Part shown: piece after piece, positions 1,183 to 34,226 of the stretch
Numbering within the stretch: the first letter of the stretch is position 1
Layout: every line of letters begins with the position of its first letter
NCBI GenBank assembly: GCA_017436525.1
Contig: JAFSCX010000044.1
Location: 1,267-65,266 of the forward strand
Length of the DNA: 64,000 nucleotides
DNA from: Clostridia bacterium
GTDB taxonomy: Bacteria > Bacillota > Clostridia > Oscillospirales > QAKW01
Direction: 5' to 3'
The notes under the pieces: generated by a model
Database searches by the model: none
What the model was told of the DNA's origin: nothing
The model's input: only the letters and a program-made list of their open reading frames with translations
Position numbers and translations under genes: made by a program

Positions 1183-1217
1183 AAAGGCTCTCCTTTGCGG
1201 GAGAGCCTTTCTTTTTT
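1183..1217. terminator. bidirectional intrinsic terminator
   Basis: AAAGGCTCTCC-tttgc-GGGAGAGCCTTT hairpin followed by CTTTTTT. It sits between the convergent 835-1179 (+) and 1216-10626 (-) genes. Confidence 0.8.
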
Positions 1218-4200: not shown

Positions 4201-7200
4201 CTTCATGATCGGCGAGAAAATCTCATTGAGCCCTTTTCCAATGGTATCGCCAAATATATTGGTCTGCTTGTTTTGAATCATGCTGATTCCCGCATTGGAG
4301 GAAGAACGTGCCATATTGAAATATTGATAGAGATGCTCATCCCCTTTTCTTCGGCCAATATCATAAACCGCATCGCCGGAATCTACCAGCTTCCGCTGGA
4401 TCATATTCCAGCTCTCGCTCATCTTCTCTCCAAAGGTCTTGCGTTCCTCCTGCACCTCAGTAGAAACGCCCGCCTCCGGTGAAGCATTTTCCTCCGCAAA
4501 GCTCGAAGCGGTTCGGGAAAGAAGCGCCATATAACTGCTTGCGTTTTGGCTTGCTCTCTTTGCCTCGCCGCTCTCCATCTCAAAGAGCGCATCGATCTCC
4601 GCCTGCCGATCGGCCGCAAACTGCGCTTGTTCAAAGGGATCCATATCGACAAAGTCTTTGGCGAAATCTGCACCATCATTCTGCGCCGCCACCTCCTCCG
4701 AGGTAAAGAGGGAATCAATGGCATCTGTTTCTGGATCAAAATCCGTTCCGGGGCGGATCTGATCTCCGCCATTTTTCCAGCCATATTCCCTCGCCCGCTG
4801 CTCCTTTACCTTGTTTTCCAACTGAGCGATGATATCCCCGCTCACCTTGCTCTCGCCAAGATGCTGCTCAATGGCTCCCAATACCTTCCGCAGCATCTCC
4901 GCCGATTCGATATCGGTATCCGCCAAGCGATCCACTCCAGCATATGCATTTTCTAAAAAAGCGTCGGCATCCACGCCTCCAAGTCCTTGGGCTTCTTGCA
5001 AAATTCCCTCTTGGCGGTAAAGCTCTGCCAGCTCCACTACCACATCATTGCGGCCGGGGGCAATTAAGGAAGAGACTTTTCGCTGTTTTGGAGTGGAATT
5101 ATTTTTTTCTTGACTATTTTGATTGTTTTGTGATATATTATTATTGGAAGTATTCATTCCATAGCTAGCGGCAATTGGCGCCGTCGGCTCACTGGTTTGG
5201 ATGCTTCTGTTTTTTATTCTAACAATATTTCCTTTTCTCAATTCTTTTTGGATATACCCGCGCAGATCTTCTTTACCAAATACAGTAGCCACCTTATTCA
5301 CATCTATCATCACTCTGTTGCAGTTTGCGTGTTCATTAATATAAACAGGGACATTGATAGTATCTCCGTTTTGATTTTTATGTTGAGAGATAAGGAGAAA
5401 ATATTTTTCTCTTCTGTTTGGATTATCAGCGTTTTTGGTTCCTCGATACGCCTCCGTAACATCCTCTAAGCTATCCATAACCTTCAAAAACAGAGTATCT
5501 CCAAGGCCGTGATAATTAGTTTTACCGTCAACCTTTAACCCCATTGCTTGCGCTTCTTTTTCAGTAAGGATGTTTTCTCTGATATGCGACGCCTTCATGG
5601 CCATCGGAAGATTTTTAGCACCTTTTTGAGAAACTACAATTGACGGTGTAGTTTCTGTTAGCTCAATATCGCCTCCATAATATTTATTGTTTATCGCCTT
5701 TTTAACCTCGGTCGCCGCTCCGTCTTTTAATGAATATTTCATCGCCCCCTCAAGATCCACCGCACCTTCCGCCGCCTGATAATTGGAAGCCGCATCGAGG
5801 GCGGCATCTTCAAAAAGCGCATAGAATTGATCCAATACGCCTTCCATCTGCTGCAGGGCTTGCGCCTCGGCAGATGCGGGGGCGTAATTATTTTTGGAAT
5901 ATTCTGCACGGATTCTTTTCAAAAGGCTTTTGATATGATTGATGATCCGGCTGAAAAGGCTCTGATCCTTCTGCTTCAGTGCGGCAAGCTTCTCCACCGC
6001 CTTGCTATCCAGCAGCATCCGCTCGCAGGCATCACAAACGACCTCCTCATAAGCCAAAGCGGGATCCTCGATCCCTAAAGCCTCTTGCTTTGCCTTAACC
6101 AGCTCATCCATGGAGATCCCATGCTCCCCATATTGCTCCTCTAAGAATTTTGCAAAGGCATCGAATTTTTCTACCGACCACTGCTTAATAAAGTGGGTCA
6201 GTTCATGGCTCATGGTTAAAGCGATGGTCTTTCGATCATCCAAATTCTTCTGCAGATCTAAATGGATGCTGCTATCGGCCTCATTAAAGAAACCATTTGC
6301 ATTAGCGCCATAAGTACCTTCAATAGTGGAATCATAGAAAACAATATCAATCCCGATGGCATTGGCAACCACTTTTGCAAGCTTCACCGCTTGCTTTTGG
6401 GATTCGGTGATGGCTTCTGCCCCCTTTTCAAAACGCACCGCGCCGGTACCAGCCACCGCCTCGGGTGCTTCCGCTTGCTCATCATAGATCATCTCCCGAG
6501 CGATTCTTTGCTCCTGCTCAGTTACTCGATTTTCATTGCAAAAAGCCTCGATCTGCTTCCGCACCGCCGCAAGCTCTGTCCGATCAACCGTATAGGCTTC
6601 CTGCGTTAGCATAACGGAATAATACCGAGCGCAAAACTCATCCTCTGCCATTGAGCGTGAATAATCCAAGCCGCTCACAGCCTTTTGCTGCAGAATGGTA
6701 TTGATCTCCTCTGCAACACCCTCTTCTCCGAGGGTGTTTTTTGCTGCCTGCAGGATGGTTTCTCGAAAGTTCTTTCCCTTTTCCGGCTCCAGCTGCATGA
6801 TCATCTGATAGGCCTGATGGCCGATGGCATAAAAAATCCCCTGATCCAGATCGGTAAGATTCACCGCCATTAAGCCGGAAGCAAGAAAATCTCCCGTTTG
6901 ATGATGATCGGTAACAAGGAAATGAATCCCGCTCATCTCCGAGAGAATATTCAAGGTCTCTGCCGCCTCTTGCTGGGTTTCATTCAAATCAGCTCTGCCT
7001 TCCACGATCACGCCTTCTTTCATGAAGCCTGCCATGGAATCATAATATAAGATCTGCTCAATGGCTTGGGTATCGAATTCCCCGAAAGTATCCTTAAAGA
7101 GGGCAAGGCGGGCTTTAGAAACCTTTCCATTCTCATCGGTAAAGGAAGCAAGGCGGGCAAGGAGTGCGATCTGCCGAGGGGAGATATCCTTTCCCAAGAG

Positions 7201-10200
7201 TTCCTCTCCCATCATCCCCTCAAGGATCGAAAGCAGCCGCTCATCCTTGGCAATGGTCGAAGCTTCTTCTAAGGTGAGGGTTTTTGCAGTCAGCACCTTG
7301 CGGAAGATCTCCTTCGCCCGCTTGATCTCGGCAGGATCTGCACCTTCCATATTGGCCTCGATCATGGTGGAAAGAGTTTTGGCCGCGCCCTTCACTCTGC
7401 GCTTGCGGATGCTCTTTTGGATATTTACAATATCCTTTGCCGAAACGAACGCTGCAGCCCCCTCTTTCCCTTTATATCGGGGTTGCTGATTCTGCTTCGC
7501 TTCTTTGATCTTAAGGGCTGTTTTATTCTCAAGCTGCGCTCCGAGGGAGATCAGCTGATCCACCTCGCCAAGCTGCAGGGTGCGGGCCGCTTCGATTTCT
7601 ATGGCACGATTTTCAAAAGGAGCATAAGCCACCGAGAAGGCACCGCCGGTAATGGCGCCCAAAAGGAAGCTTCTGCCGGCCTCTTCCCAATCGATTTCTT
7701 CCAGCTCAGCATCAGAGATCCCATTAAGATCGGAAGCGATCTTAGAAAGGAAAGGGCTGATCACCTCCTGCAGGAATTCCTCAAAGCCTTCAGCGCCCAT
7801 GGAGGAGGCGATCTTGATAGCGGTTTTTGCGCCTTTGGTAAGTGCAAGCTTCTCAATGCTGCCCTTCAGCTTTGTAAAGAGCCCATTTTTCGAAGTGAGC
7901 CCCGGAATACCACCCAAGATCTTCTCCATTGCCACCTCTGCGGTACCCGATAGCACACCGTGGGTCAGCGCTTCATCAGACCGCTTGCCTGCGGCAATAT
8001 CCTCGGTATAGGTGGTGGCCATGGATTTGGCAAAGATATAACCGGAGGCTGCCGCCTGCCCCACGACCGGCACAAAGGAAACCGCTACCGCAGGCACCAT
8101 ATCTAAAATAGTATAGCCACCCATGTAGATCGTCTCCAATGCCTCGCCGCCGAATCCCATCTGATCCAGTTTTTCTACCGTTACCTGATGAGAAGCGGTC
8201 CCCAAGGTTCCCGCCATCCGCTCATAACTGCCTGCGGCCATATTTTCAAGCATATAGCCGCCTTGTGTTAAGAAACGGGTCAAGCCGGAAAATGCACCTT
8301 TTGTTCCTGCCCACCAATCATTGAGGGAATCAGCCTCAGCTAAAAGGGCCTGCTCCCGCACATTGGCATAATAGGAGAAAGCAAGCTCATGCTCCCCTTC
8401 TGCCAAAAGGGCAAGGACCCGATCCGCCTGCTCTTTTTCAAAGAAGCCGTAATCTCCTTTTGCAAATCCTTCCACATCGGTTTCAAAATCCCGATAATTG
8501 CCATCAAAATATTTTCCTCCATGGCGATATTGCTTCGCAATTTCCGAAAATCCCTCCAAGGAAAATTCCTTCGCTTTTTCTGCCGCCTGATCATCCGGAA
8601 TCAGTTCTTCTGCATATTGCACCACATTCCGATGATAAGCGCCGGTAATCTTCTGCTCTTTTTGGGAAAGCTCTCCGATCTCACCCTGCACCCTTGCAAG
8701 AGTTTCCTCGTTGCCCTCAAGCACACCGGGGAGCCGCTCACCGTCCCGCGTAATATAAACCGCCTTTCCGTCTGCATCATATTCCAGCCGCAAGGTCATC
8801 TGATCCCGTGCATATTGAGCATTCCCGCTCATGATGGTGCTATATTGCATCAGATCTTCCCAACGCCGGCGCACATCGGAATGAAGCTTGCTCACCTTCT
8901 CGGCCCAATTCTTGCCGGCATAAGATTTAGCCCATTGCTCCACTTCTTGATCCTCGGCAGCATTCTTCTCATTGGTCTTTCGGTTCTCAATATATTTTGC
9001 AAGTTTATCAGTTTCTTTTTTATACTCCGAATATTTCTTTTCTTGACCATCCACAATAACATCCGCCAACGAATTCTCTGCATAGTTCGTTTTCTTCAGC
9101 CATTGCACATATCCGGGAAGCCGTGCATTGATCATTTTTTCCTGTTCAGCCTGCAGTGCCTCTAACTCCTCAACAGAATACCCTCCATAGATATCATCCA
9201 TCTTCCGGTATTCTTTTTGGCTCTCATAGGATTCTTCATTCTCCTCATAAGTAACAGCATATTCCTGCATCTGTTTCAAAGCAGGAAGGCTCTTTTTAAG
9301 ATATTCCGCAGCGCCGGAGACAATCTCCTGCTGATCTACGGTGAGATCTACATTCTTCAAAGCATTCTCCAAAGCGGCAACCATACCCTCCGAGGTCTTG
9401 ATATGAATCTCAAGTTCCTTTTTCTCCTCATCGGAGAGTTTCTCCAGCTGATCAAATTTTTCTTTTGCCTTGGTATAGATCTGCTCTGTGGCGGCGGTGG
9501 TGCTGCCGATCCCTTTCTCCAAGCGGTCCAGATAATAAGAATAGGCAGCGTTACGATCCTCAACCGTCTCCGCTTCTTGAAGCATCACATAAGCATCCGC
9601 GATGCGGAAGGTTTCCTTTTCCTTTGCACTCTCAAGGGAACCGGCAGTATCAATGATCTTTTCCAGCCTCTTCACCGTCTCCTTCGCCCATTCAGGCGCC
9701 TTTTCCTGCACTTGAACCGATAAGGCTTCCTTCTTGGTTTTTACATTTTTTACCGAAGGAGCAGCAAGCTTCTCAAGGGCGGTATATCCTTCAGCAGTCA
9801 TTCCCGAAAGCCGTTTCTTGAGCACCCGCTCTTCCATGGCATAATCAAAATACCGCAAGGCCGCCTCCATCTGGCTCCTGCTTCTGCTATCAATTCCGCT
9901 TCGGAATGCAATCCATTCCCGCGCCTCTTGAAGATCCTTAAAGGATTGCCCCGTTTTTTCGGCATACTCAATCGCTTCCCGAACTCCCGATTTAATCTTT
10001 TCGGGTGTTTCATCATCAACAGAAACCTTTTCTTTTTTCTGCTCCACCTTCTTTTGAATCGATACCGTCTCTCCGGCCTTAATAGCCGCAATCGCCTGCT
10101 CATAATCCGCCTTCGCCTTAGCAGCCTTGGCTTTGGCGGCCTGTTTTTGCTGAAATTCCGCGTTTTTCTTCTCGGCAAACGTTCTTACCACGCTATCCTT

Positions 10201-10626
10201 AAAGCCGAGATCTGCCGAAAAAGAGGGATCGTAGATCCCAAGCGCCAGCATATCCATTGCCTCTTGCCGGCGATCGGCAAGCTCTTGCGCTTCCACCGAG
10301 CGAATAGAGCGGCGCTCCTGCTCAACCAAGGAACGATCGGCGCGGCGTTTTTGCTCTGAGCGGTTTCGCTCTGATCGTTCAAAGGAAAGGCGGCTTTGCT
10401 CCATGGAGATTTCCTGCCCCGCCTGCGCCATAGCGATCTGCGCCGCCCTATTTTGGGCTGCAATCTCCTCATCACGGCGGATTTTGGCCGTTTCTGTTTT
10501 GGTTTTAAGGATATTTCGCCCCGAAATGGCGGAAAGAGCCGTCCGAGAGGACTCGGAGGCTCTTTCAAATTCATTCATCATCTGATCCCTTGCTAAAAGG
10601 ACTTGCTTCAAAGTATTATCGCTCAT
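1216..10626 (-). CDS. giant (3136 aa) multidomain virion/ejection ('polyvalent') protein with Zn-metallopeptidase motif
   Basis: Single uninterrupted ORF and last gene of the structural operon. It has an N-terminal K/E/R-rich coiled-coil region, a Gly/Ala-rich hydrophobic segment (..YMGGYTILDMVPAVAVSFVPVVGQAAASGY..), an HELTH motif at nt 6193-6207 (aa 1474-1478) inside ..NGFFNEADSSIHLDL....ALTMSHELTHFIKQW, and a large C-terminal region (..VNFGRSGTLGKRLNQNWVPFFNPSIQGW..). Confidence 0.7.
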   Translation of the reverse strand: MSDNTLKQVLLARDQMMNEFERASESSRTALSAISGRNILKTKTETAKIRRDEEIAAQNRAAQIAMAQAGQEISMEQSRLSFERSERNRSEQKRRADRSLVEQERRSIRSVEAQELADRRQEAMDMLALGIYDPSFSADLGFKDSVVRTFAEKKNAEFQQKQAAKAKAAKAKADYEQAIAAIKAGETVSIQKKVEQKKEKVSVDDETPEKIKSGVREAIEYAEKTGQSFKDLQEAREWIAFRSGIDSRSRSQMEAALRYFDYAMEERVLKKRLSGMTAEGYTALEKLAAPSVKNVKTKKEALSVQVQEKAPEWAKETVKRLEKIIDTAGSLESAKEKETFRIADAYVMLQEAETVEDRNAAYSYYLDRLEKGIGSTTAATEQIYTKAKEKFDQLEKLSDEEKKELEIHIKTSEGMVAALENALKNVDLTVDQQEIVSGAAEYLKKSLPALKQMQEYAVTYEENEESYESQKEYRKMDDIYGGYSVEELEALQAEQEKMINARLPGYVQWLKKTNYAENSLADVIVDGQEKKYSEYKKETDKLAKYIENRKTNEKNAAEDQEVEQWAKSYAGKNWAEKVSKLHSDVRRRWEDLMQYSTIMSGNAQYARDQMTLRLEYDADGKAVYITRDGERLPGVLEGNEETLARVQGEIGELSQKEQKITGAYHRNVVQYAEELIPDDQAAEKAKEFSLEGFSEIAKQYRHGGKYFDGNYRDFETDVEGFAKGDYGFFEKEQADRVLALLAEGEHELAFSYYANVREQALLAEADSLNDWWAGTKGAFSGLTRFLTQGGYMLENMAAGSYERMAGTLGTASHQVTVEKLDQMGFGGEALETIYMGGYTILDMVPAVAVSFVPVVGQAAASGYIFAKSMATTYTEDIAAGKRSDEALTHGVLSGTAEVAMEKILGGIPGLTSKNGLFTKLKGSIEKLALTKGAKTAIKIASSMGAEGFEEFLQEVISPFLSKIASDLNGISDAELEEIDWEEAGRSFLLGAITGGAFSVAYAPFENRAIEIEAARTLQLGEVDQLISLGAQLENKTALKIKEAKQNQQPRYKGKEGAAAFVSAKDIVNIQKSIRKRRVKGAAKTLSTMIEANMEGADPAEIKRAKEIFRKVLTAKTLTLEEASTIAKDERLLSILEGMMGEELLGKDISPRQIALLARLASFTDENGKVSKARLALFKDTFGEFDTQAIEQILYYDSMAGFMKEGVIVEGRADLNETQQEAAETLNILSEMSGIHFLVTDHHQTGDFLASGLMAVNLTDLDQGIFYAIGHQAYQMIMQLEPEKGKNFRETILQAAKNTLGEEGVAEEINTILQQKAVSGLDYSRSMAEDEFCARYYSVMLTQEAYTVDRTELAAVRKQIEAFCNENRVTEQEQRIAREMIYDEQAEAPEAVAGTGAVRFEKGAEAITESQKQAVKLAKVVANAIGIDIVFYDSTIEGTYGANANGFFNEADSSIHLDLQKNLDDRKTIALTMSHELTHFIKQWSVEKFDAFAKFLEEQYGEHGISMDELVKAKQEALGIEDPALAYEEVVCDACERMLLDSKAVEKLAALKQKDQSLFSRIINHIKSLLKRIRAEYSKNNYAPASAEAQALQQMEGVLDQFYALFEDAALDAASNYQAAEGAVDLEGAMKYSLKDGAATEVKKAINNKYYGGDIELTETTPSIVVSQKGAKNLPMAMKASHIRENILTEKEAQAMGLKVDGKTNYHGLGDTLFLKVMDSLEDVTEAYRGTKNADNPNRREKYFLLISQHKNQNGDTINVPVYINEHANCNRVMIDVNKVATVFGKEDLRGYIQKELRKGNIVRIKNRSIQTSEPTAPIAASYGMNTSNNNISQNNQNSQEKNNSTPKQRKVSSLIAPGRNDVVVELAELYRQEGILQEAQGLGGVDADAFLENAYAGVDRLADTDIESAEMLRKVLGAIEQHLGESKVSGDIIAQLENKVKEQRAREYGWKNGGDQIRPGTDFDPETDAIDSLFTSEEVAAQNDGADFAKDFVDMDPFEQAQFAADRQAEIDALFEMESGEAKRASQNASSYMALLSRTASSFAEENASPEAGVSTEVQEERKTFGEKMSESWNMIQRKLVDSGDAVYDIGRRKGDEHLYQYFNMARSSSNAGISMIQNKQTNIFGDTIGKGLNEIFSPIMKKGKAYYEQFQYYLYHLHNIDRMSRESIERTEQARADFELIAECYPEFANLSERDIRRKAGDWSDPSQPAALEYIKALDFKERMEEIRNIPVFGPDVTAEVSEGKAQDLLREHPEFKELGDAVRRYLDNLLQYRVDSGLISKDFAEELRAIYPHYVPTRRVQAEESVEARKSNRASIGKTVGRAEDGVADLVPLHKQIADQTLSVVREGSKNRFGMRLLDLARQGKFKEVVDFEQSADRMIGLSEFEGAIDKMDPFQQEEWENLFMVYDHGTQYTLSVTPELLEAVKALSPEKEKTFWLEEQSHKAVNLYKALITSYNPAFAVRNFARDIQDASLYSKDLKGFLRNYPAAWKEIARNGEYWQKYQALGGTYSSVFDYNQGIIKEEGGWIKRNIGNRIEWLNRAIEQAPRLAEFMATVKKGDGSMDSLMEAMYNAADITVNFGRSGTLGKRLNQNWVPFFNPSIQGWSKACRLLTETKSARQWVGLIAKVALLGIAPSLINDILFGDDDEYEKIKQRDKDVNFLIKAGDHSWLKIPKGRVLSVMGMPIYRIKQLIEGEEIGWGEFISTAADQVAPMNPLTDNVFASALTAIAFNKNWYGGDIVPQSMQDDPKAEQYDATTDKFSIAIGGALNISPKKINYLLDSYTGVAGDIILPMLSVASQQNFLTKAFVIDSEYSNRLQGDFYDTKDLLTEKKNSSKATAADEVKYRWWNHKAKAISEISKEIKQIQGNVSLSKKDKEEALKIQYAARNALLLQSEEEYERYIKAVDERLANDPSASAEEIYREVNREIYGAEMALQIEGKSTYERAQKVVKENNIDFDTFYDIYFDSSVDTDKAAKMIGEGLPKESAVKIARGLEAIAPEQGEESISYLQKYKAIASADVDESEKLYAMSLFASDSDRRRIAIGTEHDISLDQFIMVKENLEDANDAAGKNSASNGRIQAAIASTDGLTRRQQAILWQLFTGSTSAKNNPFSVSTGWETVAKIKAYKKAHEED

Positions 10627-17217: not shown

Positions 17218-17823
17218 TTATTCCTCCTTGTAGTTATAATTGATGGTTGCATTGGTAGCACCCCAAGGAGCATTTGCTACCTCACCCTCCGCCCAGGGGA
17301 CGTTTATAACGGTTAGGTTATCGCATTTTTGAAAAGCGTTGCTTGCAATGCTCATCGGTGTACTCCTAAATGTTATATTTGTTAATCCTTTGCAACCGCT
17401 AAAAGCAAGAGAATATATTTTTGTAGTATTTAATTTTGTAAGTGCGATTTTCTCGCAACCATAAAAAGTCGCCGCGCAAATAGCACCTTGAAATTTCAGC
17501 AATTCCGTTAAAACAAGATTTTTGCAATTATAAAAGGCATACTCGCCAATCCATGTAATCTCGTTAATGCCCTCAACGCTTTCGAGATTTTCGTGGTTCA
17601 TAAATGCATATTGTTGTATACTTGTTATTCCCTCGGGCAAGGTAAAATGTGTTGCAGTTTTCCGCCAATACTCTTCCCATTGACTATCTCCACCGCCTGT
17701 TTGAATATTAGAGATTGCAGCAGGGAGATCGCCCACTAATATCAGGTCGCTTGTTCCGCTCTTCTCCCGAACTGCATCAGCAATGTCGGTCAAGGTTTTT
17801 TCTTGGATGATGTATGCACTCAT
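17218..17823 (-). CDS. BspA-type leucine-rich-repeat protein (virion appendage candidate)
   Basis: Repeats of the form I..I..YAF..C.NL (ITSIQQYAFMNHENLESV, ITWIGEYAFYNCKNLVLT, FYGCEKIALT, IYSLAFSGCKGLTNI, IASNAFQKCDNLTVI). AT-rich gene that overlaps the fibre-like gene by 4 bp. Confidence 0.7.
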   Translation of the reverse strand: MSAYIIQEKTLTDIADAVREKSGTSDLILVGDLPAAISNIQTGGGDSQWEEYWRKTATHFTLPEGITSIQQYAFMNHENLESVEGINEITWIGEYAFYNCKNLVLTELLKFQGAICAATFYGCEKIALTKLNTTKIYSLAFSGCKGLTNITFRSTPMSIASNAFQKCDNLTVINVPWAEGEVANAPWGATNATINYNYKEE

Positions 17824-21081: not shown

Positions 21082-22491
21082 TTAAATTGGCTTGATCCGC
21101 CTGCCTTTTCCGCCGGCATGAGGTTTCGGCCGCTGAAATTCAAAATCATATCGCGGCGCGGGCTTTGGCATCGTTTTTTCTCTCGGCCGCCCTGCGAAGA
21201 AATATCGCAGCGCATCCGGCGCATGAGTCAGTTCATGGGGCTCTGTTGCCACATCGTTGGGATCGTGGGGATCCACCGCCACCGCAGGCAGCGTACGGAT
21301 CAAATGCCTGCAGCAGGAAAAGATCTTGAGATCTGCAGTCCTTCCGCCCTGCTCGTCCGTTTTTACCTGCAGCATTTCCTTCAGGTGTAGCCATCCCGCC
21401 ACCCTGCTGCTCTTTACCTGCCGCAGAGGTACACCATTTTCCCGAAACACCTCTGCAATGGATTTGCCCGTATCGCGGCTTTTGCCCCAAAGATCGGGCG
21501 GGGCAAAGATGCTGCGCACCGTATAGCCTGCCATCAATCCTTTAATGGCAGCGGCCGCTTCCGATACAATCAGCCCCTTATGCTCTCCATCCGGATGCTG
21601 ATTGCCATCGTAAAACTCATCCACCACGTAGAATTTATTTCCCGGCGCCACGCCCACCAAAAGCGCCGCCAGCATATCTAAGCCATAGTCGATTGCCACA
21701 TAAAATTGCCAATCGCTTGGGATATTCCCTTTGGTAAAGAGCGGATCCACCACATGGACCTCCCGCTCAAAATTATCAAAATACTGCCCGTCAAAGAGAT
21801 CCCATTCCCCATAGAGCAGTGCTTTTTTATTTCGATCATCCAACGTTTCAAGATTCCGCAGATATCCCTCATCGTTTTCCATCAGAAAAGCATTGTCTTG
21901 CACCTTTGCCGGAATAAAGATCCTTGTCCCGGTATAAATACCCTTTTTGTTGTACCCTTCAAAAACCGTATCCGGTGGCGCAGGATCAATAAAACGCTCC
22001 TTTACCCAAGTGTGTCCCACCCCGCCGGGGTTGGTACTGCTCTTGATACTACGCGGAAAAGGCGCTGTTCCCCGCAAGCGGGAAAACATATAGATATACA
22101 TAAACTCCGTAAAATGGGTCAGCTCATCAAAGCGGATCACATCGTATTCCGCGCCCTGATACCGATAAACATCGGCCTCCTTATCCATGTATCCAAAATC
22201 AATGATCGATCCGTTGTTGAATTTTCCAGAGTGCTTGCTTGCGTTGTATTTGAAAAGCTCCCGAGGCAAATTACCCTCGAAATATCGGATGATGCTCTGC
22301 TCTAACTCAGGAAAGGTGCGCCGGAAGATGATCTGCCTGCTGCCGGGATATTTCCCCGCATAGATCACCGCATCCAAAAACTGCCCAAAACTCTTTCCGC
22401 CTCCTGCCGCTCCACCGTAAAGAACCTCATCTGCATCGGCAAATACAAATTGCTCCTGCCGCTTGGTATATTGAAAATTAAGCTGCCGCAC
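21082..22491 (-). CDS. terminase large subunit
   Basis: Walker A in LYGGAAGGGKSFG, a Walker B-like VIRFDELTHF, and a C-terminal nuclease-like region. GTG start overlaps the terS stop. Confidence 0.9.
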   Translation of the reverse strand: MRQLNFQYTKRQEQFVFADADEVLYGGAAGGGKSFGQFLDAVIYAGKYPGSRQIIFRRTFPELEQSIIRYFEGNLPRELFKYNASKHSGKFNNGSIIDFGYMDKEADVYRYQGAEYDVIRFDELTHFTEFMYIYMFSRLRGTAPFPRSIKSSTNPGGVGHTWVKERFIDPAPPDTVFEGYNKKGIYTGTRIFIPAKVQDNAFLMENDEGYLRNLETLDDRNKKALLYGEWDLFDGQYFDNFEREVHVVDPLFTKGNIPSDWQFYVAIDYGLDMLAALLVGVAPGNKFYVVDEFYDGNQHPDGEHKGLIVSEAAAAIKGLMAGYTVRSIFAPPDLWGKSRDTGKSIAEVFRENGVPLRQVKSSRVAGWLHLKEMLQVKTDEQGGRTADLKIFSCCRHLIRTLPAVAVDPHDPNDVATEPHELTHAPDALRYFFAGRPREKTMPKPAPRYDFEFQRPKPHAGGKGRRIKPI

Positions 22492-26027: not shown

Positions 26028-26239
26028 ACCGGCTCCACCTCCTCCATTCGAAAACTATGTAGGGCATTCTTGCCCTTCTCTAAAATATCGCAATAGGGCA
26101 GCTCCTTCCCGTCTCGATCCTTCCGATAGCCAACCGCCGCCACCGTTCCGGCAACGATCCGCTCATAGGTGGGCTCCTGTACCTTCGCCATCACCTTCCG
26201 GCCGGAAACCAACGCCGCCCGAAGTTCAAAGAATTCCAT
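26015..26239 (-). CDS. hypothetical early protein
   Basis: Start chosen at MEFFELRAAL (26239) behind AAGGAAGGA. Confidence 0.35.
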   Translation of the reverse strand: MEFFELRAALVSGRKVMAKVQEPTYERIVAGTVAAVGYRKDRDGKELPYCDILEKGKNALHSFRMEEVEPVWQE

Positions 26240-26675
26240 CGTATCCTTCCTTTCTGTCAAAAACTGTACCAATTACTTTGGCACGCTCCGCAAAGAAATT
26301 ATCAAGATCATCAGTTGCACCATTTTCCGTCCAAGCAACCTCAAAGCGACAAAGCGCATCATTCCAACGAACAATGAAATCTTCTCCTTCACCATCATCT
26401 CCGTAAAACCGGCAAATATCTCCTTCAAAGATAATTCCGCGCTTTGCCTTCATTCCGGTGCAGCTTCCTATTGTCTCCGGTATAACATTCCAGATTCGGC
26501 TCTTTTTGCCAAAATTTCGAATATAATAAACGGTTACCTCTCCTTTAGAGGCTACAATTCTTAAGTTACCTTTTACCCACCAACCTTTGATGAGTTGACC
26601 ATTTATGTAAATATTTTCTGATCCGCTTGAATCTTCATGAAATCCACGAAAAACAAATCTACTCTTTGAATTCAT
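26226..26675 (-). CDS. YopX-family phage protein
   Basis: ..VIPETIGSCTGMKAKRGIIFEGDICRF....VIGTVFD matches the YopX pattern (v.peTvgq.TGl.Dk.G..IyEGDI ... viGNi.d). Confidence 0.7.
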   Translation of the reverse strand: MNSKSRFVFRGFHEDSSGSENIYINGQLIKGWWVKGNLRIVASKGEVTVYYIRNFGKKSRIWNVIPETIGSCTGMKAKRGIIFEGDICRFYGDDGEGEDFIVRWNDALCRFEVAWTENGATDDLDNFFAERAKVIGTVFDRKEGYDGIL

Positions 26676-27696
26676 TCATTTCCTCCTTGATTCTTTTATC
26701 CATCGCAACGGATAGATTGTAACAATTTCCATGGGATATGTGATTCTTCCAAGCATTATAGGAAGCATTAAATTTATCTTTAGATAACCTTCCGCTCGCA
26801 ACCAACTTGGCCATTTTCAGATATTTGCGCTGGGCATTTCGCTTATTTTGATTTTTCAGCTTGCGGATCGCTCTGCCATTGGACGTTATATAGGTATGGA
26901 ATCCAAGATAATTAACCCCGTTTTTGAATGGAAATATTTGTGTTTTTTCGTTAAGCGTCAGATCCAGTGTTTTCAAAAACTCTGCGATCACCTCAAGGCA
27001 ATATTTCAGATATTCTTTGCTCGGATGTATTAAGTAGAAATCATCCATATACCTGCCGTAAAACTCTATTCCCAGTTCTCCCGTTATCAGCTTGTCCATG
27101 CCGTCTAAATACAACAGTGCCAAGCCTTGGTTGATCTGATTACCAAGCGGAAGGCCTTTGCCCTCGGTGCTATCAATAAAAAGATTGATCAACCAACAAA
27201 TATCTGGATCATACGAAAAATAAAAATCAACCATATCCTTTAATTGCTCATGGGAGATGTTATAAAAGAATTTTGAGATATCGCATTTAAGGATATAACC
27301 ACTTTTTTCATACCTACCGTAAAAAGCTCTCATCTGATCAGATAATCGATCAAGACCGAAGAGCGTTCCTTTCCCTTTTTGTCCGGCACAATTATCATAC
27401 AGAAACACCTCCTGCAGTTTCGGCAAGAGTACGTTATCGCAAAGGCTATGTTGTACAACCTTATCTTTGAAAGATGTTGTTTTAATGATCCGTTCTTTTG
27501 GCTCATACACCTTAAATTCATGATAATCAGATATCCGGTAGGTTTTATCTTTCAATTGCTGTATCAATGAATTAATTCCATCTAAGGCCATCACATTAAA
27601 CCTTGCGGCACTCTTTTTATAACCCTTGCCGCTTTTGGCTTTACGGTAAGCCTTATACAGATTGTTAAAGTCAATTACTTTCTCAAACTCGGTCAT
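26659..27696 (-). CDS. diversity-generating retroelement (DGR) reverse transcriptase
   Basis: 345 aa with RT motifs, including GLPLGNQINQGLALLYL (DGR-type I/LGxxxSQ-like motif 4) and YGRYMDDFYL (YMDD). It lies immediately 3' of an Avd gene and a TR that matches two VRs. Confidence 0.9.
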   Translation of the reverse strand: MTEFEKVIDFNNLYKAYRKAKSGKGYKKSAARFNVMALDGINSLIQQLKDKTYRISDYHEFKVYEPKERIIKTTSFKDKVVQHSLCDNVLLPKLQEVFLYDNCAGQKGKGTLFGLDRLSDQMRAFYGRYEKSGYILKCDISKFFYNISHEQLKDMVDFYFSYDPDICWLINLFIDSTEGKGLPLGNQINQGLALLYLDGMDKLITGELGIEFYGRYMDDFYLIHPSKEYLKYCLEVIAEFLKTLDLTLNEKTQIFPFKNGVNYLGFHTYITSNGRAIRKLKNQNKRNAQRKYLKMAKLVASGRLSKDKFNASYNAWKNHISHGNCYNLSVAMDKRIKEEMNEFKE

Positions 27697-27806
27697 ACAA
27701 CACGCCTTCTTTTTTGTTTATCCATACGGAAAGGCTGTATGTTCTTTTGATGAAGTGGTGTTCTGATTTCGGCTTTTGCCTACTCTGTCTGACGATCCAC
27801 CAATAC

Positions 27807-27871
27807 GGGCGCACGCCGTTATTGTTGTTGTAGTTGTTGTTATTGTTGATGTTGCCGCGGGGCGAGACACA
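27807..27871 (-). repeat. DGR template repeat (TR)
   Basis: Coding-strand sequence: TGTGTCTCGCCCCGCGGC AAC ATC AAC AAT AAC AAC AAC TAC AAC AAC AAT AAC GGCGTGCGCCCG. There are 22 adenines in the central 36 nt. The invariant flanks are identical to VR1 and VR2. Confidence 0.9.
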
Positions 27872-28268
27872 AAAAATACAACACACAGCCTATATTTAAT
27901 CTTTTTTTCTCTTTGCTCCTCCAAGCAATAGCCATATACTTAACATCAGAAGTAATCTTGGACCAATAAGATGCCGAATGATCCGCAAGCAACCCTAAAT
28001 TCATTGATAATTCAATAAAGAATAGCAGCTCATCGCAATAGGTTATAGCTCTCGTGATAGTTTCACAGCGTTGTCGCTTATCGGTAACATTATTGATCCG
28101 GTTCGCCTCAAAAAGCGTCTCGTAGATCTCCAAGCTCTTAATCTGAATCTTATCTACAAGAGAATGGCGATATTTCTTTGGATATCTATTGCAATTAGAT
28201 GTCAATTTGAAAGAATGTACCGCCAATTCCTTAGCCTTGACGATTACCTTCAATTCAGTATCTGCCAC
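27840..28268 (-). CDS. avd: DGR accessory variability determinant (Avd), four-helix-bundle family
   Basis: 142 aa with a GTG start. ..NRYPKKYRHSLVDKIQIKSLEIYETLFEANRI... resembles Avd and 23S-rRNA-IVS four-helix-bundle proteins. It lies between the targets and the TR, and its 3' end overlaps the TR. Confidence 0.8.
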   Translation of the reverse strand: MADTELKVIVKAKELAVHSFKLTSNCNRYPKKYRHSLVDKIQIKSLEIYETLFEANRINNVTDKRQRCETITRAITYCDELLFFIELSMNLGLLADHSASYWSKITSDVKYMAIAWRSKEKKRLNIGCVLYFLCLAPRQHQQ

Positions 28269-28273
28269 GATCC

Positions 28274-28813
28274 TCAGTCCTCACAAGATACAGAGATTGA
28301 AGATACAAAGCACAAAATCGGGCGCACGCCGAGACAGTCGTCGTTGCAGTCGCCGTCATTGAGGATGCCGCCGCGGGGCGAGACACAAAGTCGCCAAGAA
28401 GGATCACAGTGCGGCAGCGCAGTATCTGCAGTAGCAAGCCACCACCAATCATTTACCTTGTACATATCAAACAAATCAACATGCTTCCGGTAAAAATCAA
28501 AGGTCGGGATGCTGATTTTCGAATTTATTTTTCCATATCCTTTCAAGCCATCCAGCGTTGTAAGATCGGTTTCAAAATCACAAATATTTTCAGCACCCAC
28601 TTCTTTTTCGATCATTGGCAGAAACTCTTTATTCAGCCGTTCTAAAACCTTACTTTTTGAAAAATCATTGTTGCCATACTCAGATTTGAAAGCAACACCC
28701 TTTGCGACAACCGTAATTTTTCCATCATTATCCTCCATCTTGATGAAGGACTCTCCACCTACCCGGAAGGACTTTCCAATTTCAACTTCACTTAATTTAA
28801 CAGTATTTTTCAT
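28274..28813 (-). CDS. DGR target protein 1 (C-type-lectin/FGE-like variable C-terminus)
   Basis: Start at MKNTVKLSEV (28813) behind GGAGG. The C-terminus ..WWWLATAD....CVSPRGGILNDGDCNDDCLGVRP.. carries VR1. Paralogous to target 2. Confidence 0.85.
   Translation of the reverse strand: MKNTVKLSEVEIGKSFRVGGESFIKMEDNDGKITVVAKGVAFKSEYGNNDFSKSKVLERLNKEFLPMIEKEVGAENICDFETDLTTLDGLKGYGKINSKISIPTFDFYRKHVDLFDMYKVNDWWWLATADTALPHCDPSWRLCVSPRGGILNDGDCNDDCLGVRPILCFVSSISVSCED
28320..28387 (-). repeat. DGR variable repeat VR1 (68 nt, one codon longer than TR)
   Basis: Flanks are identical to the TR. All 14 substitutions relative to the TR fall at TR adenines. There is one extra GAC codon in the AAC run. 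Confidence 0.85.
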
Positions 28814-28814
28814 A

Positions 28815-29435
28815 TTATTTTTCCTCCACTTTAGATACAAAGATATTAGAATTTAAGATACAAAACGGGCGCACGCCGCTAATGATGTCGTAGCTGTCGC
28901 TATTGTGGATGCCGCCGCGGGGCGAGACACACTTCACCCATGAACTATTATCATGCTTCGGAGTGCTATATGCCGTAGCAGTCCACCACCAATCGTCGAT
29001 CTTATATTCATCCAGAAGATCAACATATTTTCTATAAAGATTTGCGGTAAGTAAAGACATTTTCCTTTCAATGCTGCCATAACATTTCAAACCATCATCA
29101 GCAGTCAGATTCACCGTATGTTTAATAAGGTTCTCCTCGCCGATGATCTTTTCGATCTCGCACCCAAAATCTTTGCAAATAGCATCTACATTTGAGCCAT
29201 CATAATTGTTGTTTTCACCAAAAAATTCACTATTACGATACAGAGCCTTAAGAATCACCGCCGCGGCATTTTCAGACTGCTCAAGTACGATAAATTCGTA
29301 GTCGCCAACCTTAAATGTTTTCCCTGCCTCAATATCCGCAAGTTTGATTTGCGTTTTTTCAAAGCTACGCTTGATCTCCTCAGCCTGCTCAGCGGTTAAT
29401 TCGATTTTCTTTCCGTTCAACATCATGTAATTCAT
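28815..29435 (-). CDS. DGR target protein 2 (paralog of target 1)
   Basis: 206 aa. The C-terminus ..WWWTATAY....CVSPRGGIHNSDSYDIISGVRP.. carries VR2. Confidence 0.85.
   Translation of the reverse strand: MNYMMLNGKKIELTAEQAEEIKRSFEKTQIKLADIEAGKTFKVGDYEFIVLEQSENAAAVILKALYRNSEFFGENNNYDGSNVDAICKDFGCEIEKIIGEENLIKHTVNLTADDGLKCYGSIERKMSLLTANLYRKYVDLLDEYKIDDWWWTATAYSTPKHDNSSWVKCVSPRGGIHNSDSYDIISGVRPFCILNSNIFVSKVEEK
28867..28931 (-). repeat. DGR variable repeat VR2 (65 nt, same length as TR)
   Basis: 10 substitutions relative to the TR, all at TR adenine positions. Flanks GTGTCTCGCCCCGCGGC and GGCGTGCGCCCG are identical. Confidence 0.9.
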
Positions 29436-29517
29436 TTTCTAAAACTCTCCTTGCAAATATTCTCCCCTCATGCTAAAATATACATGAGGTTCATTCTTGA
29501 CCGTTTGTCCTCGTTTC

Positions 29518-29550
29518 GCCGCTGAGCAGTTCCTTTGCTCAGCGGCTTTT
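29518..29550. terminator. GC-rich hairpin at the upstream edge of the DGR cassette
   Basis: GCCGCTGAGCA-gttcctt-TGCTCAGCGGC, with TTTT on the + strand and AAAA on the other side. Confidence 0.5.
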
Positions 29551-29551
29551 C

Positions 29552-29944
29552 TCATACAATCTCCAAAAATCCGGGGTTATCAATGGCATTGCCGATGATC
29601 TCAAAATTGGAAGATGGCTCTTCAAAGAAATTGATCTGCCGCCCATCCTTGGTCATCAGAGCAAACATTCCATCTTCCTCTGCATATTCCACCACTCCGG
29701 CAAGGCCTCTCTCCTTATCCAGGATAATATCCTGATCGAAGAGTACCCGCTCATCCTTTGCTTGCAACCCGCTGCAGGCGCATACCGTTTTCGGATCCAC
29801 CGGATAGCAGAATACCTTGTCCCCCTCAAAGCCGTAGATCGCAGGACCAATCTCCGGTACCGTCGGATGCTTCGGCAGATAATAGCCTTCCACCCATCCC
29901 TGCGCCGCCTTTCCGCGGCAAATCAAATGCTTCTTCTCGTTCAT
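29552..29944 (-). CDS. YopX-family phage protein (second copy)
   Basis: ..VDPKTVCACSGLQAKDERVLFDQDII....FEIIGNAIDNPGFLE fits the YopX pattern. Confidence 0.65.
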   Translation of the reverse strand: MNEKKHLICRGKAAQGWVEGYYLPKHPTVPEIGPAIYGFEGDKVFCYPVDPKTVCACSGLQAKDERVLFDQDIILDKERGLAGVVEYAEEDGMFALMTKDGRQINFFEEPSSNFEIIGNAIDNPGFLEIV

Positions 29945-30586: not shown

Positions 30587-30775
30587 TTAGCCTTCCACAC
30601 CATAAAGCTCATCCAAGGTGCACCCCAACGCCCTCGCCAACTCCGGCAGCTGCTTCGCACGAGGACTCCGCACACCGCTCTCCCACTGACAAACCGTTGT
30701 CTGCCCCACCTTCATCACTTGGGCTAACTCACTTTGAGTTAGCCCTTTTTCTTTTCGAATTTCTTTAATCCTCAA
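30587..30775 (-). CDS. Cro-like XRE-family HTH regulator
   Basis: TTG start (30775) lies 7 nt after AGGAGG. LRIKEIRKEKGLTQSELAQVMKVGQTTVCQWESG is a canonical XRE HTH. The longer ORF-track start was rejected. Confidence 0.75.
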   Translation of the reverse strand: MRIKEIRKEKGLTQSELAQVMKVGQTTVCQWESGVRSPRAKQLPELARALGCTLDELYGVEG

Positions 30776-30813
30776 GTCATCACCTCCTAAAAAGCAAAAT
30801 ATTCTTTCGCTCT

Positions 30814-30831
30814 GTGATATTAAAATATCAC
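30814..30831. promoter_or_regulatory. operator: perfect 18-bp palindrome overlapping the early-promoter -10
   Basis: GTGATATTAAAATATCAC. Related half-sites TTGTGATAT (30905-30913) and TTGTGAGAAT (30866-30875) are present. Minus-strand promoter: TTGACA (30845-30850), 17 nt, TGaTATTTT (-10 at 30822-30827). Confidence 0.65.
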
Positions 30832-30887
30832 GATATGAAAGATTTGTCAAGTATTTTATTTCGTTTTGTGAGAATTTTCTTTTTGTG

Positions 30888-30916
30888 TTGATTTGCTTCA
30901 CATTTTGTGATATTTT
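30888..30916 (+). promoter_or_regulatory. candidate repressor (cI-like) promoter
   Basis: TTGATT, 17 nt, TGaTATTTT (extended -10), with the -10 overlapped by the GTGATAT half-site. Confidence 0.5.
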
Positions 30917-30941
30917 TAGAATTATAAGGAGGCGAGTTATT

Positions 30942-31367
30942 ATGTTTGAAAAAAATCTCAAGCAATTACGAAAAGAAAGAAATCTCACCCAAACCGAATT
31001 GGCACTTCATCTTCGGGTTTCTCTGGGCGCTATTGGTAATTGGGAAGCAGGAAACCGTACACCCGATGCACAAATGCTTTTAACCATCGCTGACTATTTC
31101 GGCGTTTCTACAGATCGCCTTTTGCGTGATCCAAATTTCACAGACACCCCTTTCTCCCAAAAAGAAAAACGGTTGATCTCTGCATATAGAAATCAACCGG
31201 ATATTCAATTAGCGGTAGATCGGCTCTTGGGGGTTGATACCCCACTGAAATTAATATCGGAAAATAAAAGCGCGGCTTTGGGAGGAGACGAGACCCCAAT
31301 TATCTCCAATGCAAGTTCTAACGAAATTGCATCAACAATCAGAAAAATAAAAAAAGAAGGGGAATAA
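30942..31367 (+). CDS. CI/ImmR-like XRE-family repressor
   Basis: ATG 30942 behind AAGGAGG. MFEKNLKQLRKERNLTQTELALHLRVSLGAIGNWEAGNRTP is an XRE HTH, followed by a C-terminal extension. Divergent from the cro-like gene. Confidence 0.8.
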   Translation: MFEKNLKQLRKERNLTQTELALHLRVSLGAIGNWEAGNRTPDAQMLLTIADYFGVSTDRLLRDPNFTDTPFSQKEKRLISAYRNQPDIQLAVDRLLGVDTPLKLISENKSAALGGDETPIISNASSNEIASTIRKIKKEGE

Positions 31368-32759: not shown

Positions 32760-32774
32760 AAGGAGGTGAAAACT

Positions 32775-34226
32775 ATGGAAATCTTTGCAGGCTATATCCG
32801 CGTCAGCACTGATGATCAAACCGAATACTCCCCCGATAGCCAGATGAAGCTCCTGCGGGAACGCGCCGAAAAGGACGGCGGCATGATTCCGGAAGAATAT
32901 ATGTTCGCAGATCCCGGCATCAGCGGCAAGGATGCCGCCCACCGCCCCGAATTCAACCGCATGATTGCTTTAGCAAAGCAAAAAGATCCCCCTTTTCGGA
33001 GGATCTATGTTTGGAAATTCAGCCGCTTCGCCCGCAACCAAGAGGAAAGCATTGTATTTAAGAATATGCTCCGCAAAAACGGAGTAGAGATCGTCAGCAT
33101 CTCCGAGCCTTTAGTGGAGGGTGCCTTCGGCTCCCTGATAGAGCGCATTATCGAATGGCAAGATGAATATTACCTGATCAACCTTTCCGGCGAGGTAAAG
33201 CGCGGCATGATGGAAAAAGCAAGCCGCGGCGAGGCCATGTGCCGGGTATTCGGTCTCGATATCAAAGATCTCTCCTATGTCAAAAATGCCGATAACCCCC
33301 ATGTGGTTGATATCTTTGAATCCTTTGATCAAGGAGAGAACCTTCGCTCTATCGCCAAGCGTCTCGATGCCGCAGGGGTACGCACCCCAAGAGGAAACTC
33401 GCCCGATATTCGCTTTGTGGAATATATCCTTCGCAACCCTATCTATATTAAAAAGCTTCGATGGAGCTCCGAGGGAAATCCTTGCTCCAAGCGCCGCTAT
33501 GACGATCCAAACATTAAGATTTTCGATGCAAAAGCACCTCGCACGGTTTCCGATGAGCTTTTCTATCGAGTGCAAAAGCGCCTCGATGATCGCAAGGCAC
33601 TCTATGCCAGATCGGACCGCCCCAATACCGGCCGCCCTTGGCTCCTAAAAGGAATTGCCAAATGCGACTGCGGCGGATCCTTAGTGTTTGCATCTGCCAA
33701 AGAGCCCTCTGTTCAATGTAATAACTATAACCATATGCGCGGTTGCACCGTCAGCCACCATATTTCCCAAAGAAAACTGTTTGAATCCTTTGTAATCGGT
33801 CTTAGAAACTGCTGTGCCCTCGATCGCTACGATACCGATCCCGATGCACCTATCAAAAAAGCCTCCGAAAGCGCCCCCGCCGATTTTCAAAAACTCATCG
33901 CCGCCGAGGAGCGCAAGCTCGCTCGCTGCGCCGCCGCCTTTCAGGCCGGCATTGATACGATGGAGGAATACGCAAAAAATAAGGCCGAGATCCAAAAGCG
34001 AATCAACGCCCTTGAGCAGGAAGCTTCCCGCCAAGCGAATAAACTCTCCCCCGAATCAGCAAAAGCCGCCTCTATCGAGGATTACCGCACCCGCACCATG
34101 GCGCTGATCCACACCCTTGAAGATCCGGAGATCCCTATCCCCTTAAAAAACGATGCCACCCGCTCCCTGATCTCCCGCGTCGTCTTCCACAAACCGGATA
34201 ACACCCTATCCATCTTCTTCAAATAA
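32775..34226 (+). CDS. large serine recombinase (prophage integrase)
   Basis: ATG 32775 lies 8 nt after AGGAGG. AGYIRVSTDDQ carries the catalytic Ser motif of the resolvase domain. A recombinase/zinc-ribbon region (CDCGGSL....C..YNHMRGC) and a C-terminal coiled coil follow. It is the last gene before attR. Confidence 0.9.
   Translation: MEIFAGYIRVSTDDQTEYSPDSQMKLLRERAEKDGGMIPEEYMFADPGISGKDAAHRPEFNRMIALAKQKDPPFRRIYVWKFSRFARNQEESIVFKNMLRKNGVEIVSISEPLVEGAFGSLIERIIEWQDEYYLINLSGEVKRGMMEKASRGEAMCRVFGLDIKDLSYVKNADNPHVVDIFESFDQGENLRSIAKRLDAAGVRTPRGNSPDIRFVEYILRNPIYIKKLRWSSEGNPCSKRRYDDPNIKIFDAKAPRTVSDELFYRVQKRLDDRKALYARSDRPNTGRPWLLKGIAKCDCGGSLVFASAKEPSVQCNNYNHMRGCTVSHHISQRKLFESFVIGLRNCCALDRYDTDPDAPIKKASESAPADFQKLIAAEERKLARCAAAFQAGIDTMEEYAKNKAEIQKRINALEQEASRQANKLSPESAKAASIEDYRTRTMALIHTLEDPEIPIPLKNDATRSLISRVVFHKPDNTLSIFFK

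Follow-up and report, generated by a model that had tools for sequence, protein, structure and literature searches.

Does the reverse transcriptase gene found in a 64,000-nucleotide stretch of Clostridia bacterium DNA (GenBank assembly GCA_017436525.1, contig JAFSCX010000044.1; hereafter the window, taken at its full length) belong to one of the diversity-generating retroelements (DGRs), and, if so, which proteins does this element rewrite, how, and for what use? An initial annotation, made from the letters alone, had described a complete, prophage-borne DGR with two target genes. Our results support the DGR reading on each point that could be tested, i.e., the pattern of the template repeat (TR) and variable repeats (VRs), the reverse transcriptase (RT), the accessory protein Avd, the order of the parts and the prophage setting. 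The word "complete" holds for the anatomy of the element but not for its current activity, as at least eight same-lineage assemblies carry the same VRs. We consider it highly probable that the locus is a canonical two-target DGR of a podovirus-like temperate phage, rewriting its two targets, T1 and T2, by a mechanism like that of phage BPP-1.

Strand reading, the list of open reading frames (ORFs) and a repeat finder place all parts on the minus strand, in the order T2, T1, Avd, TR, a 110-nt spacer and RT. They lie where the initial annotation had set them, and this target-target-avd-TR-RT order is the canonical one. The parts are:

28815-29435, minus strand: target gene T2, complete ORF of 206 aa (PHROG 9958 at 1e-33)
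28866-28931, minus strand: VR2, T2 residues ~169-190, reading CVSPRG GIHNSDSYDIIS GVRP; 10 mismatches to the TR, all at adenines
28274-28813, minus strand: target gene T1, complete ORF of 179 aa from its ATG, with a ribosome-binding site (GGAGG) (PHROG 9958 at 3e-31)
28319-28387, minus strand: VR1, one codon (an extra GAC) longer than the TR in a gapped alignment
27840-28268, minus strand: Avd accessory gene, ORF of 142 aa (PHROG 3206, "Avd protein of DGR", at 1e-19)
27880-27891, minus strand: 5' strand of a long-range duplex bracketing the TR, pairing with 27732-27743 (covariation)
27806-27873, minus strand: TR, with 10 AAY codons plus ATC and TAC, a 5' homology flank of 20 nt and the GC-rich GGCGTGCGCCCG
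27697-27805, minus strand: spacer RNA between TR and RT (covariation in 56 loci)
26659-27696, minus strand: 345-aa reverse transcriptase of the DGR type; motifs YMDD and LGNQINQ (PHROG 1423, Pfam RVT_1)

Adenine-specific differences between the template and both variable repeats

The TR core, AAC ATC AAC AAT AAC AAC AAC TAC AAC AAC AAT AAC, is flanked by GTGTCTCGCCCCGCGGC and GGCGTGCGCCCG, core and flanks being found as first described. VR2 is equal in length to the TR and differs from it at 10 positions, 10/10 of which are TR adenines (seven A>G, two A>T and one A>C). VR1 shows 14 differences (13 in the best register), 14/14 of them at TR adenines after a 3-nt gap is introduced: it contains 13 variable codons for the 12 of the TR, the extra GAC adjoining another GAC. 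The counts of 10 and 14, each falling on adenines only, agree with those of the initial annotation, which for VR1 had left the length difference unmentioned although the intervals it gave imply it (68 vs 65 nt). Given that 22 of the 65 TR bases are adenines, the substitutions would all fall on them by chance with a probability of 3.6e-6 (VR2) or 5.2e-9 (VR1). The near-identical TR of another locus (L013; L numbers designate the loci and contigs compared) also has 12 codons, which makes an insertion into VR1 a more probable origin of the extra GAC than a deletion from the TR.

As all TR adenines (22/22) occupy codon positions 1 or 2 only, no stop codon can arise from their replacement, and the diversity initially calculated, 15^10 x 4 x 4 = 9.2e12 peptides, is arithmetically correct. 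A further VR was not found in the window, where a TR pattern with all adenines made degenerate matches only the TR and VR2.

The GC-rich 3' element GGCGTGCGCCCG, identical in the TR, VR1 and VR2, is present in exactly these three copies in 64 kb, against 0.24 expected. Homology runs beyond this element, the TR reading GTATTGGTGG there, VR2 GTTTTGT and VR1 GATTTTGT. The bases that follow the element are either VR-specific (TTTTGT or ATTTTGT) or TR-specific (TATTGGTGG), and this split is constant across the family of related cassettes (see below), where, judging by the alignments, it behaves as a fixed difference between the IMH* and IMH (initiation of mutagenic homing) forms.

The same pattern throughout a family of related cassettes

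An RT scan of one genome per species gave 473 related RTs, the best 80 loci of which were fetched. These are metagenome-assembled genomes of Oscillospiraceae, Acutalibacteraceae, Faecousia and Congzhengia, many of them from the ruminant gut. The T2-T1-Avd-TR-RT cassette is found in ~60 of these 80 loci; counted from the start of RT, its VRs stand near -1230 and -690. When 126 VRs from 64 loci are aligned with their TRs, gaps being allowed, 1372 mismatches fall at TR adenines and 46 elsewhere, and the VR sequences differ from locus to locus. As adenine mismatches dominate and each locus has its own VRs, both targets must have been diversified repeatedly in the family. The duplication that gave T1 and T2 is old, since T2-type and T1-type orthologs are each retained. 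Lachnospiraceae relatives, whose RTs are ~60% identical, have a single VR. About 600 related RTs are present on viral contigs of IMG/VR, and a blastn search of the cassette against GenBank phages gave essentially no match.

VR1 of the window is not isolated in its length, as in-frame VR/TR length differences are seen in ~10 of the 64 related loci. Differences of 3 or 6 nt are present in L041, L045, L046, L050, L051, L059, L060, L065 and L079; they fall within the AAC-repeat core, usually with the VR as the longer of the two.

A sister cassette, found in six contigs (L169-L174), has an RT 86%, an Avd ~88%, a T2 64% and a T1 55% identical to those of the window. Its backbone is unrelated, with Sak/YqaJ, single-stranded DNA-binding protein, N6 methylase and Terminase_3 genes, and no homolog of the window's flanking proteins was found in L169. 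The DNA homology between the window and L169 has exact limits, the start of T2 and the stop of RT. With such bounds and such identities, the cassette behaves as an exchangeable module, the machinery of which is more conserved than its targets:

26682-29441, minus strand: cassette as an exchangeable module, from T2 start to RT end (74% DNA homology to L169)

In this sister cassette, the TR exceeds VR2 in length by 6 nt and VR1 by 3 nt.

A reverse transcriptase and an accessory protein of the DGR type

The RT matches PHROG 1423 at 2e-107, as well as Pfam RVT_1, and contains the YMDD and LGNQINQ motifs initially reported. Its best relative in the PDB is 8ub7 (a 328-residue chain, E 5e-32), before a group II intron RT (1e-14) and a retron-type RT (6e-6). 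From its chain length and the cryo-EM work of Handa et al., we take 8ub7 to be the Bordetella phage RT (bRT). By this ranking, the RT is nearer to a DGR RT than to the group II or retron clades, as the DGR reading of the initial annotation implies.

In bRT, Arg74 and Ile181 both promote adenine mutagenesis; in the alignment with 8ub7, the counterpart of Arg74 is conserved and that of Ile181 is replaced by Leu. The signature motif of DGR RTs is [I/V/L]GxxxSQ, with Leu permitted at its first position. The first (L) and last (Q) residues of LGNQINQ fit this consensus, with N in place of S. An N is present at this position in 65 of 83 family RTs (60 of which have exactly LGNQINQ), S being found in more distant RTs, and the adenine pattern persists in those N-motif members of the family that were compared.

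The Avd-like gene of the initial annotation is borne out by its match to the PHROG "Avd protein of DGR" family (see above). The closest relatives of this Avd (>90% identical) stop at residue 122, and the last 20 of the 142 residues encoded in the window are a read-through (27840-27903, minus strand) that crosses the 5' strand of the RNA duplex into the TR, the ORF extending 32 nt into the latter.

A conserved RNA architecture around the template repeat

To describe the RNA, the stretch that begins at the end of avd and runs up to the start of RT was aligned in 56 related loci. Four helices emerge, with 97.4% of cells paired and compensatory changes in 16 of 21 pairs; slid controls yield 29-48%, and no shuffle among 500 attains the observed values. 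In Helix 1, the 3' end of avd (27880-27891) pairs over 11 bp with the spacer (27732-27743), a long-range duplex that brackets the TR; 9 of its 11 pairs show compensatory changes and 98% of its cells are paired. Helices 2 (27801 and 27800-27798 with 27752-27749), 3 (27793-27791 with 27763 and 27761-27760) and 4 (27780-27778 with 27773-27771) make up a composite stem-loop immediately 3' of the TR, which is followed by an invariant CAAAAG and then by the 3' strand of the duplex. After this strand come a short hairpin (27730-27721), the stem sequence of which varies between loci, each sequence being folded, and an A-run. All helices are perfectly formed in the window sequence.

In BPP-1, an avd:Sp "cPRT stop" duplex is accompanied by a stem-loop and A-minor adenosines, and an Avd-binding stem-loop lies just 3' of the TR; this type of architecture has been predicted in 207 of 278 DGRs. 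The RNA of the window matches the published "cPRT stop" architecture, Helix 1 being the analogue of the avd:Sp duplex.

The minimum free energy fold of the TR-spacer RNA alone is no better than that of shuffles (z = -0.2); the structure is visible only through covariation. Rfam gives nothing at gathering score in the window or in 12 relatives. One family, RF03077 (RT-2), is found below threshold (25 bits vs a gathering score of 40): the first ~90 positions of its model align just 3' of the TR, at GUCAGACAGAGUAGGCAAAAGCCGAAAUCAG, small hairpin included, whereas the 3' half of the model is unmatched.

Two small paralogous targets, probably of the DUF6273 family

T1 and T2 are paralogs (44% identity, BLASTP 5e-46), T2 carrying 27 additional N-terminal residues, a beta-hairpin and a helix, which are absent from T1. 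PHROG 9958, which both match, is a family without known function. T2 has 1456 homologs, mostly of ~202 aa and 60-67% identical, many of which are annotated as PF19789/DUF6273; the PF19789 profile itself gives T1 16.8 bits for a cut-off of 23.5 and does not match T2. Among 25 aligned members, hypervariability is confined to the columns bounded by the invariant CVSP.G and GVRP, the remainder being conserved.

An AlphaFold (AF2) model of T2, built from 89 sequences, has a mean confidence (pLDDT, predicted local distance difference test) of 82.6 and is of low confidence only around the VR. Foldseek relates it to DUF6273 proteins of gut phages in BFVD (E 3e-8 to 3e-5, TM-scores up to 0.65) and, in the PDB, weakly to 9qa6 (a Thomasclavelia immunoglobulin A peptidase with an N-terminal DUF6273) and to the C-terminal domain of Legionella Lcl. 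No real relative came out of the PDB when the targets were searched by sequence and by profile. Homolog annotations and the predicted fold together support the assignment of T1 and T2 to DUF6273.

In the literature, a C-type-lectin-like character is ascribed to DUF6273, which is known as a target of DGRs in phages of gut Firmicutes, including small single-domain targets and two-target cassettes, and ~13% of DGRs have two targets. The view of the initial annotation that the target family is unusual is thus not upheld. T2 is 27-35% identical to the published DUF6273 DGR targets, and it is from this literature that a C-type-lectin-like fold may be attributed to the pair. Neither a signal peptide nor a recognisable tail-attachment domain was found in T1 or T2, which are single-domain proteins of ~180-206 aa. 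We infer that they bind ligands, the likeliest role being that of accessory virion proteins for receptor or adhesion binding.

A tandem DUF6273-like pair (199 and 201 aa), 35% identical to T2, is also present in an unannotated human-faecal phage (GenBank MT839962.1, L175, 4224-5429). It stands directly after early genes, and the contig ends before any Avd or RT gene could appear.

The cassette in its prophage

As the initial annotation stated, the cassette is prophage-borne: integrase, repressor, replication, packaging and head genes surround it, and its relatives lie on viral contigs of IMG/VR. PHROG and Pfam identify a serine integrase, divergent paired helix-turn-helix repressors (30587-31367), two replication initiators and the small (TerS) and large (TerL) terminase subunits, as well as, among structural genes, a P22-like portal, an SU10-type adaptor domain, a major head protein and an endolysin. 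On this gene content, the host element is a temperate phage of podovirus-like type, carried by a gut bacterium of the Oscillospirales. Two genes orient the map:

32766-34226, plus strand: serine integrase (PHROG 95 at 3e-86)
21082-22491, minus strand: terminase large subunit (PHROG 979 at 3e-49)

The cassette sits between the early genes on the cro side of the lysogeny switch and the replication genes, and the packaging and structural module begins 3.7 kb downstream of RT. Relatives keep this order, with an integrase upstream and Rep or TerL downstream; in L083, Resolvase and Recombinase Pfam domains are found on the same integrase gene. Two YopX genes (26226-26675 and 29552-29944, minus strand) flank the cassette. 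That they would result from a recent duplication split by it was considered and rejected, their identity being 36% over 33 residues.

T2 and the YopX gene upstream of it are 116 nt apart, and this gap holds a strong 12-bp stem-loop (29518-29546), with a T-run on the plus strand only. As this terminator-like stem-loop is oriented on the plus strand only, the cassette may begin its own transcription unit, or antisense transcription may be halted there.

Two other genes of this prophage were noted. At its end, a 3136-aa ORF (1216-10626, minus strand) contains an LPD38 ("large polyvalent protein") domain (Pfam 2e-31) and matches PHROG 14770; its product is probably ejected or polyvalent and of giant size. 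The structural module itself includes a gene for a 201-aa protein (17218-17823, minus strand), placed between the endolysin and the genes on the portal side. This protein has BspA-type leucine-rich repeats (Pfam LRR_5, 2e-22) and could, besides T1 and T2, be a candidate adhesin or receptor-binding protein.

Variable repeats in same-lineage assemblies

VR1, VR2 and the TR are identical to those of the window in eight other same-lineage assemblies (L001, L002 and L083-L088), a comparison that covers at least six samples, mostly from one study, through consensus assemblies, which hide minority variants. Look-ups with the exact RT and the exact T1 returned only identical VRs, and the degenerate TR/VR pattern gave no match in JGI metagenomes or IMG/VR.

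Some contig ends fall close to the repeats. Two Logan contigs from different runs, L086 and L088, both begin at 28863, 3 nt past the GC element of VR2, and the end of one of the two, at 27810, falls within the TR's GC element. The Logan contigs L173 and L174, from the sister lineage, begin ~50 nt before the T1 gene. No repeated 31-mer was found at these contig ends, and read-level heterogeneity at VR2 is a possible cause of them. Another contig, L087, corresponds to the window from 28992 to 28257 (its positions 683-1415): it contains a different T2 3' end down to 28869, with a different VR and flanks, and is then identical to the window through T1. Its first 682 nt, joined to this divergent T2 3' end, are unrelated and eukaryotic-looking. 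It could be either a mosaic junction at the VR2 IMH or a chimeric assembly. Together with the contig starts at 28863, it is a hint of current activity, being compatible with VR2 heterogeneity but also with co-occurring relatives or assembly artefacts.

A proposed mechanism and its alternatives

On the model of BPP-1, the cassette would work as follows. The transcript comprising the avd 3' end, the TR and the 110-nt spacer would fold so that the 11-bp avd/spacer duplex brackets the TR. The RT-Avd complex would bind the stem-loops of the spacer and prime cDNA synthesis in cis, from the single-stranded CAAAAG, at the 3' end of the TR, which would be copied faithfully save opposite adenines until synthesis halts at the bracketing duplex. 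The adenine-mutagenised cDNA would then replace the VR at the 3' end of either tandem paralog, T2 or T1. The 3' boundary and the direction of this replacement would be set by GGCGTGCGCCCG with the VR-specific bases after it, and the other boundary by the 17-20-nt 5' flank. Each replacement would re-randomise 12 codons (up to 9e12 peptides) on a surface loop of a small C-type-lectin-like domain and thereby alter binding. These priming and homing steps are transferred from the BPP-1 system, and we infer that the element is still active.

Several findings weigh against this reading of the locus. The curated NCBIfam and Pfam models score the Avd ORF under their cut-offs (31 bits vs 80 for DivGenRetAVD; 23S_rRNA_IVP is also below threshold), the RT signature has an N where the consensus has an S, and no BPP-1-style hairpin or cruciform was found after either VR, the folds there being no better than shuffled ones. 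VR1 is out of register with the TR by one codon. There is no sign of current activity, the same-lineage VRs being all alike and the sister lineage being VR-invariant too in its six contigs. Finally, nothing links T1 or T2 to the virion, their genes lying ~6 kb upstream of the terminase genes and outside the tail module. That the locus would not be a DGR at all, but would encode a retron, group II intron or defence RT next to repeats that are plain duplications in paralogs, is nonetheless barely conceivable. NCBIfam does give the RT only sub-threshold matches, to group II intron RT (84 bits vs a cut-off of 300) and to Drt3a, but this database appears to have no dedicated DGR RT model. Furthermore, the TR copy is non-coding in its own frame, has hardly any codons but AAY, and departs from the two VRs at adenines only; the adenine pattern is family-wide, Avd is present, and the RT is closest to 8ub7, taken as the BPP-1 RT. 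Rfam finds no group II intron or retron RNA, and with the PDB ranking this excludes a retron or group II reading of the RT. It is a more serious, if still rather unlikely, alternative that an intact-looking DGR is now quiescent or slowly decaying, with fixed VRs and a VR1 that has not been rewritten since it acquired its extra codon. The identical VRs of the eight same-lineage and six sister-lineage contigs would be expected from such an element; the GAC beside GAC in VR1 resembles a DNA-level duplication that took place after the last homing, the normal stop codon of Avd is lost, and the in-frame length differences of related loci point the same way. However, the ORFs are intact, the catalytic motifs are present and the RNA helices are perfect in the window; an internal indel leaves the flanks able to direct the next replacement; homing by DGRs is a rare event in any one generation, and a read-level signal is often missing from the published DGRs of gut phages too. 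The two Logan contigs that start 3 nt after VR2 would, for their part, fit read-level heterogeneity.

With the DGR accepted as real, T1 and T2 could also be soluble, non-structural binders, expressed early or from the prophage, whose action would be within the host cell or on its behalf, directed for instance at a variable factor of the host or of a competitor. Such a role seems unlikely to us, but it would account for the place of the cassette, between a cro-like gene with small early ORFs and the replication initiators, flanked by YopX genes and ~6 kb from TerS and TerL, a place kept in relatives and, in the unrelated backbone of the sister lineage, next to recombination and methylase genes. 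It would also be consistent with the small size of T1 and T2 (~180-206 aa), their single domain and the lack of a signal peptide or known tail-attachment domain, and with a 2026 preprint in which a DGR-targeted DUF6273 protein of Faecalibacterium prophages is found in the bacterial secretome without phage particles. On the other hand, published readings of small DUF6273 targets all favour receptor or adhesion binding on the virion, and in many relatives the cassette is just 2-3 kb upstream of the terminase, so that late co-transcription is possible. A wider form of this proposal, to which we give little credence, is that T1 and T2 are a conserved soluble, DGR-diversified lectin-fold pair, early or lysogeny-proximal, that moves with RT and Avd between unrelated backbones. 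If this were true, hypermutation of these proteins would let the phage or its lysogen follow a variable target inside the cell or on the host side, in place of an adsorption receptor. The reading that we retain is that of a DGR diversifying what are probably ligand-binding proteins, most likely of the virion.

Comparison with known DGRs

The cassette resembles the mtd-avd-TR-brt cassette of BPP-1 in its target-avd-TR-RT order, its adenine-specific differences, the C-terminal position of the VR in a C-type-lectin-type fold and the GC-rich element ending the repeat, as well as in the avd/spacer duplex, the stem-loop with adenosines and the stem-loop 3' of the TR. It differs by having two tandem targets instead of one, and a TR core of 36 nt instead of ~134 nt. 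Its targets are single domains of ~200 aa, whereas Mtd has a beta-prism and a beta-sandwich that attach it to the tail fibre. Furthermore, it lacks the post-VR hairpin, has an NQ instead of an SQ motif, lies away from the tail genes, and its RT is only distantly related to that of BPP-1 (E 5e-32).

Closer in their targets are the nd4 and nd12 elements (Baykov et al., 2023, PMC10743442), in which one TR serves two DUF6273, C-lectin-like targets. Their tgt2 is, like T1 and T2, a small single-domain protein with a C-terminal VR, and both are tblastn relatives of T2. However, they are 29% identical to T2 and belong to myovirus-like phages (with a tail sheath), unlike the podovirus-like phage studied here, and their first target is a large "tentaclin" with immunoglobulin domains and a VR near its N-terminus, whereas both of ours are small with C-terminal VRs. 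The Faecalibacterium phages Lelie, CP11 and Toutatis (PMC11792537; bioRxiv 10.1101/2024.10.15.618418) are likewise temperate Oscillospirales phages with two VRs in DUF6273 proteins, "small" targets included, and their reads are often without a signal of activity. They differ from the window prophage by the low identity of their targets to T2 (27-30%), by having no DNA similarity to it and by their pairing of a large target with a small one, at times with 17 kb between them, where the window has adjacent small paralogs.

Significance for the family

As a DGR, the element adds little, since two-target DUF6273 DGRs have already been described in temperate gut phages. Its value is that of a compact example, with a TR core of 36 nt and a cassette of 2.8 kb, and of an entry to a very large, uncharacterised family of cassettes in Oscillospirales of ruminant and other animal guts. 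This family supplies natural covariation evidence for a DGR RNA architecture that has so far been solved only in BPP-1, and a natural NQ-for-SQ variant of the RT motif that still accompanies adenine mutagenesis. It also offers a test case for the virion status of small lectin-fold targets encoded outside the tail module.

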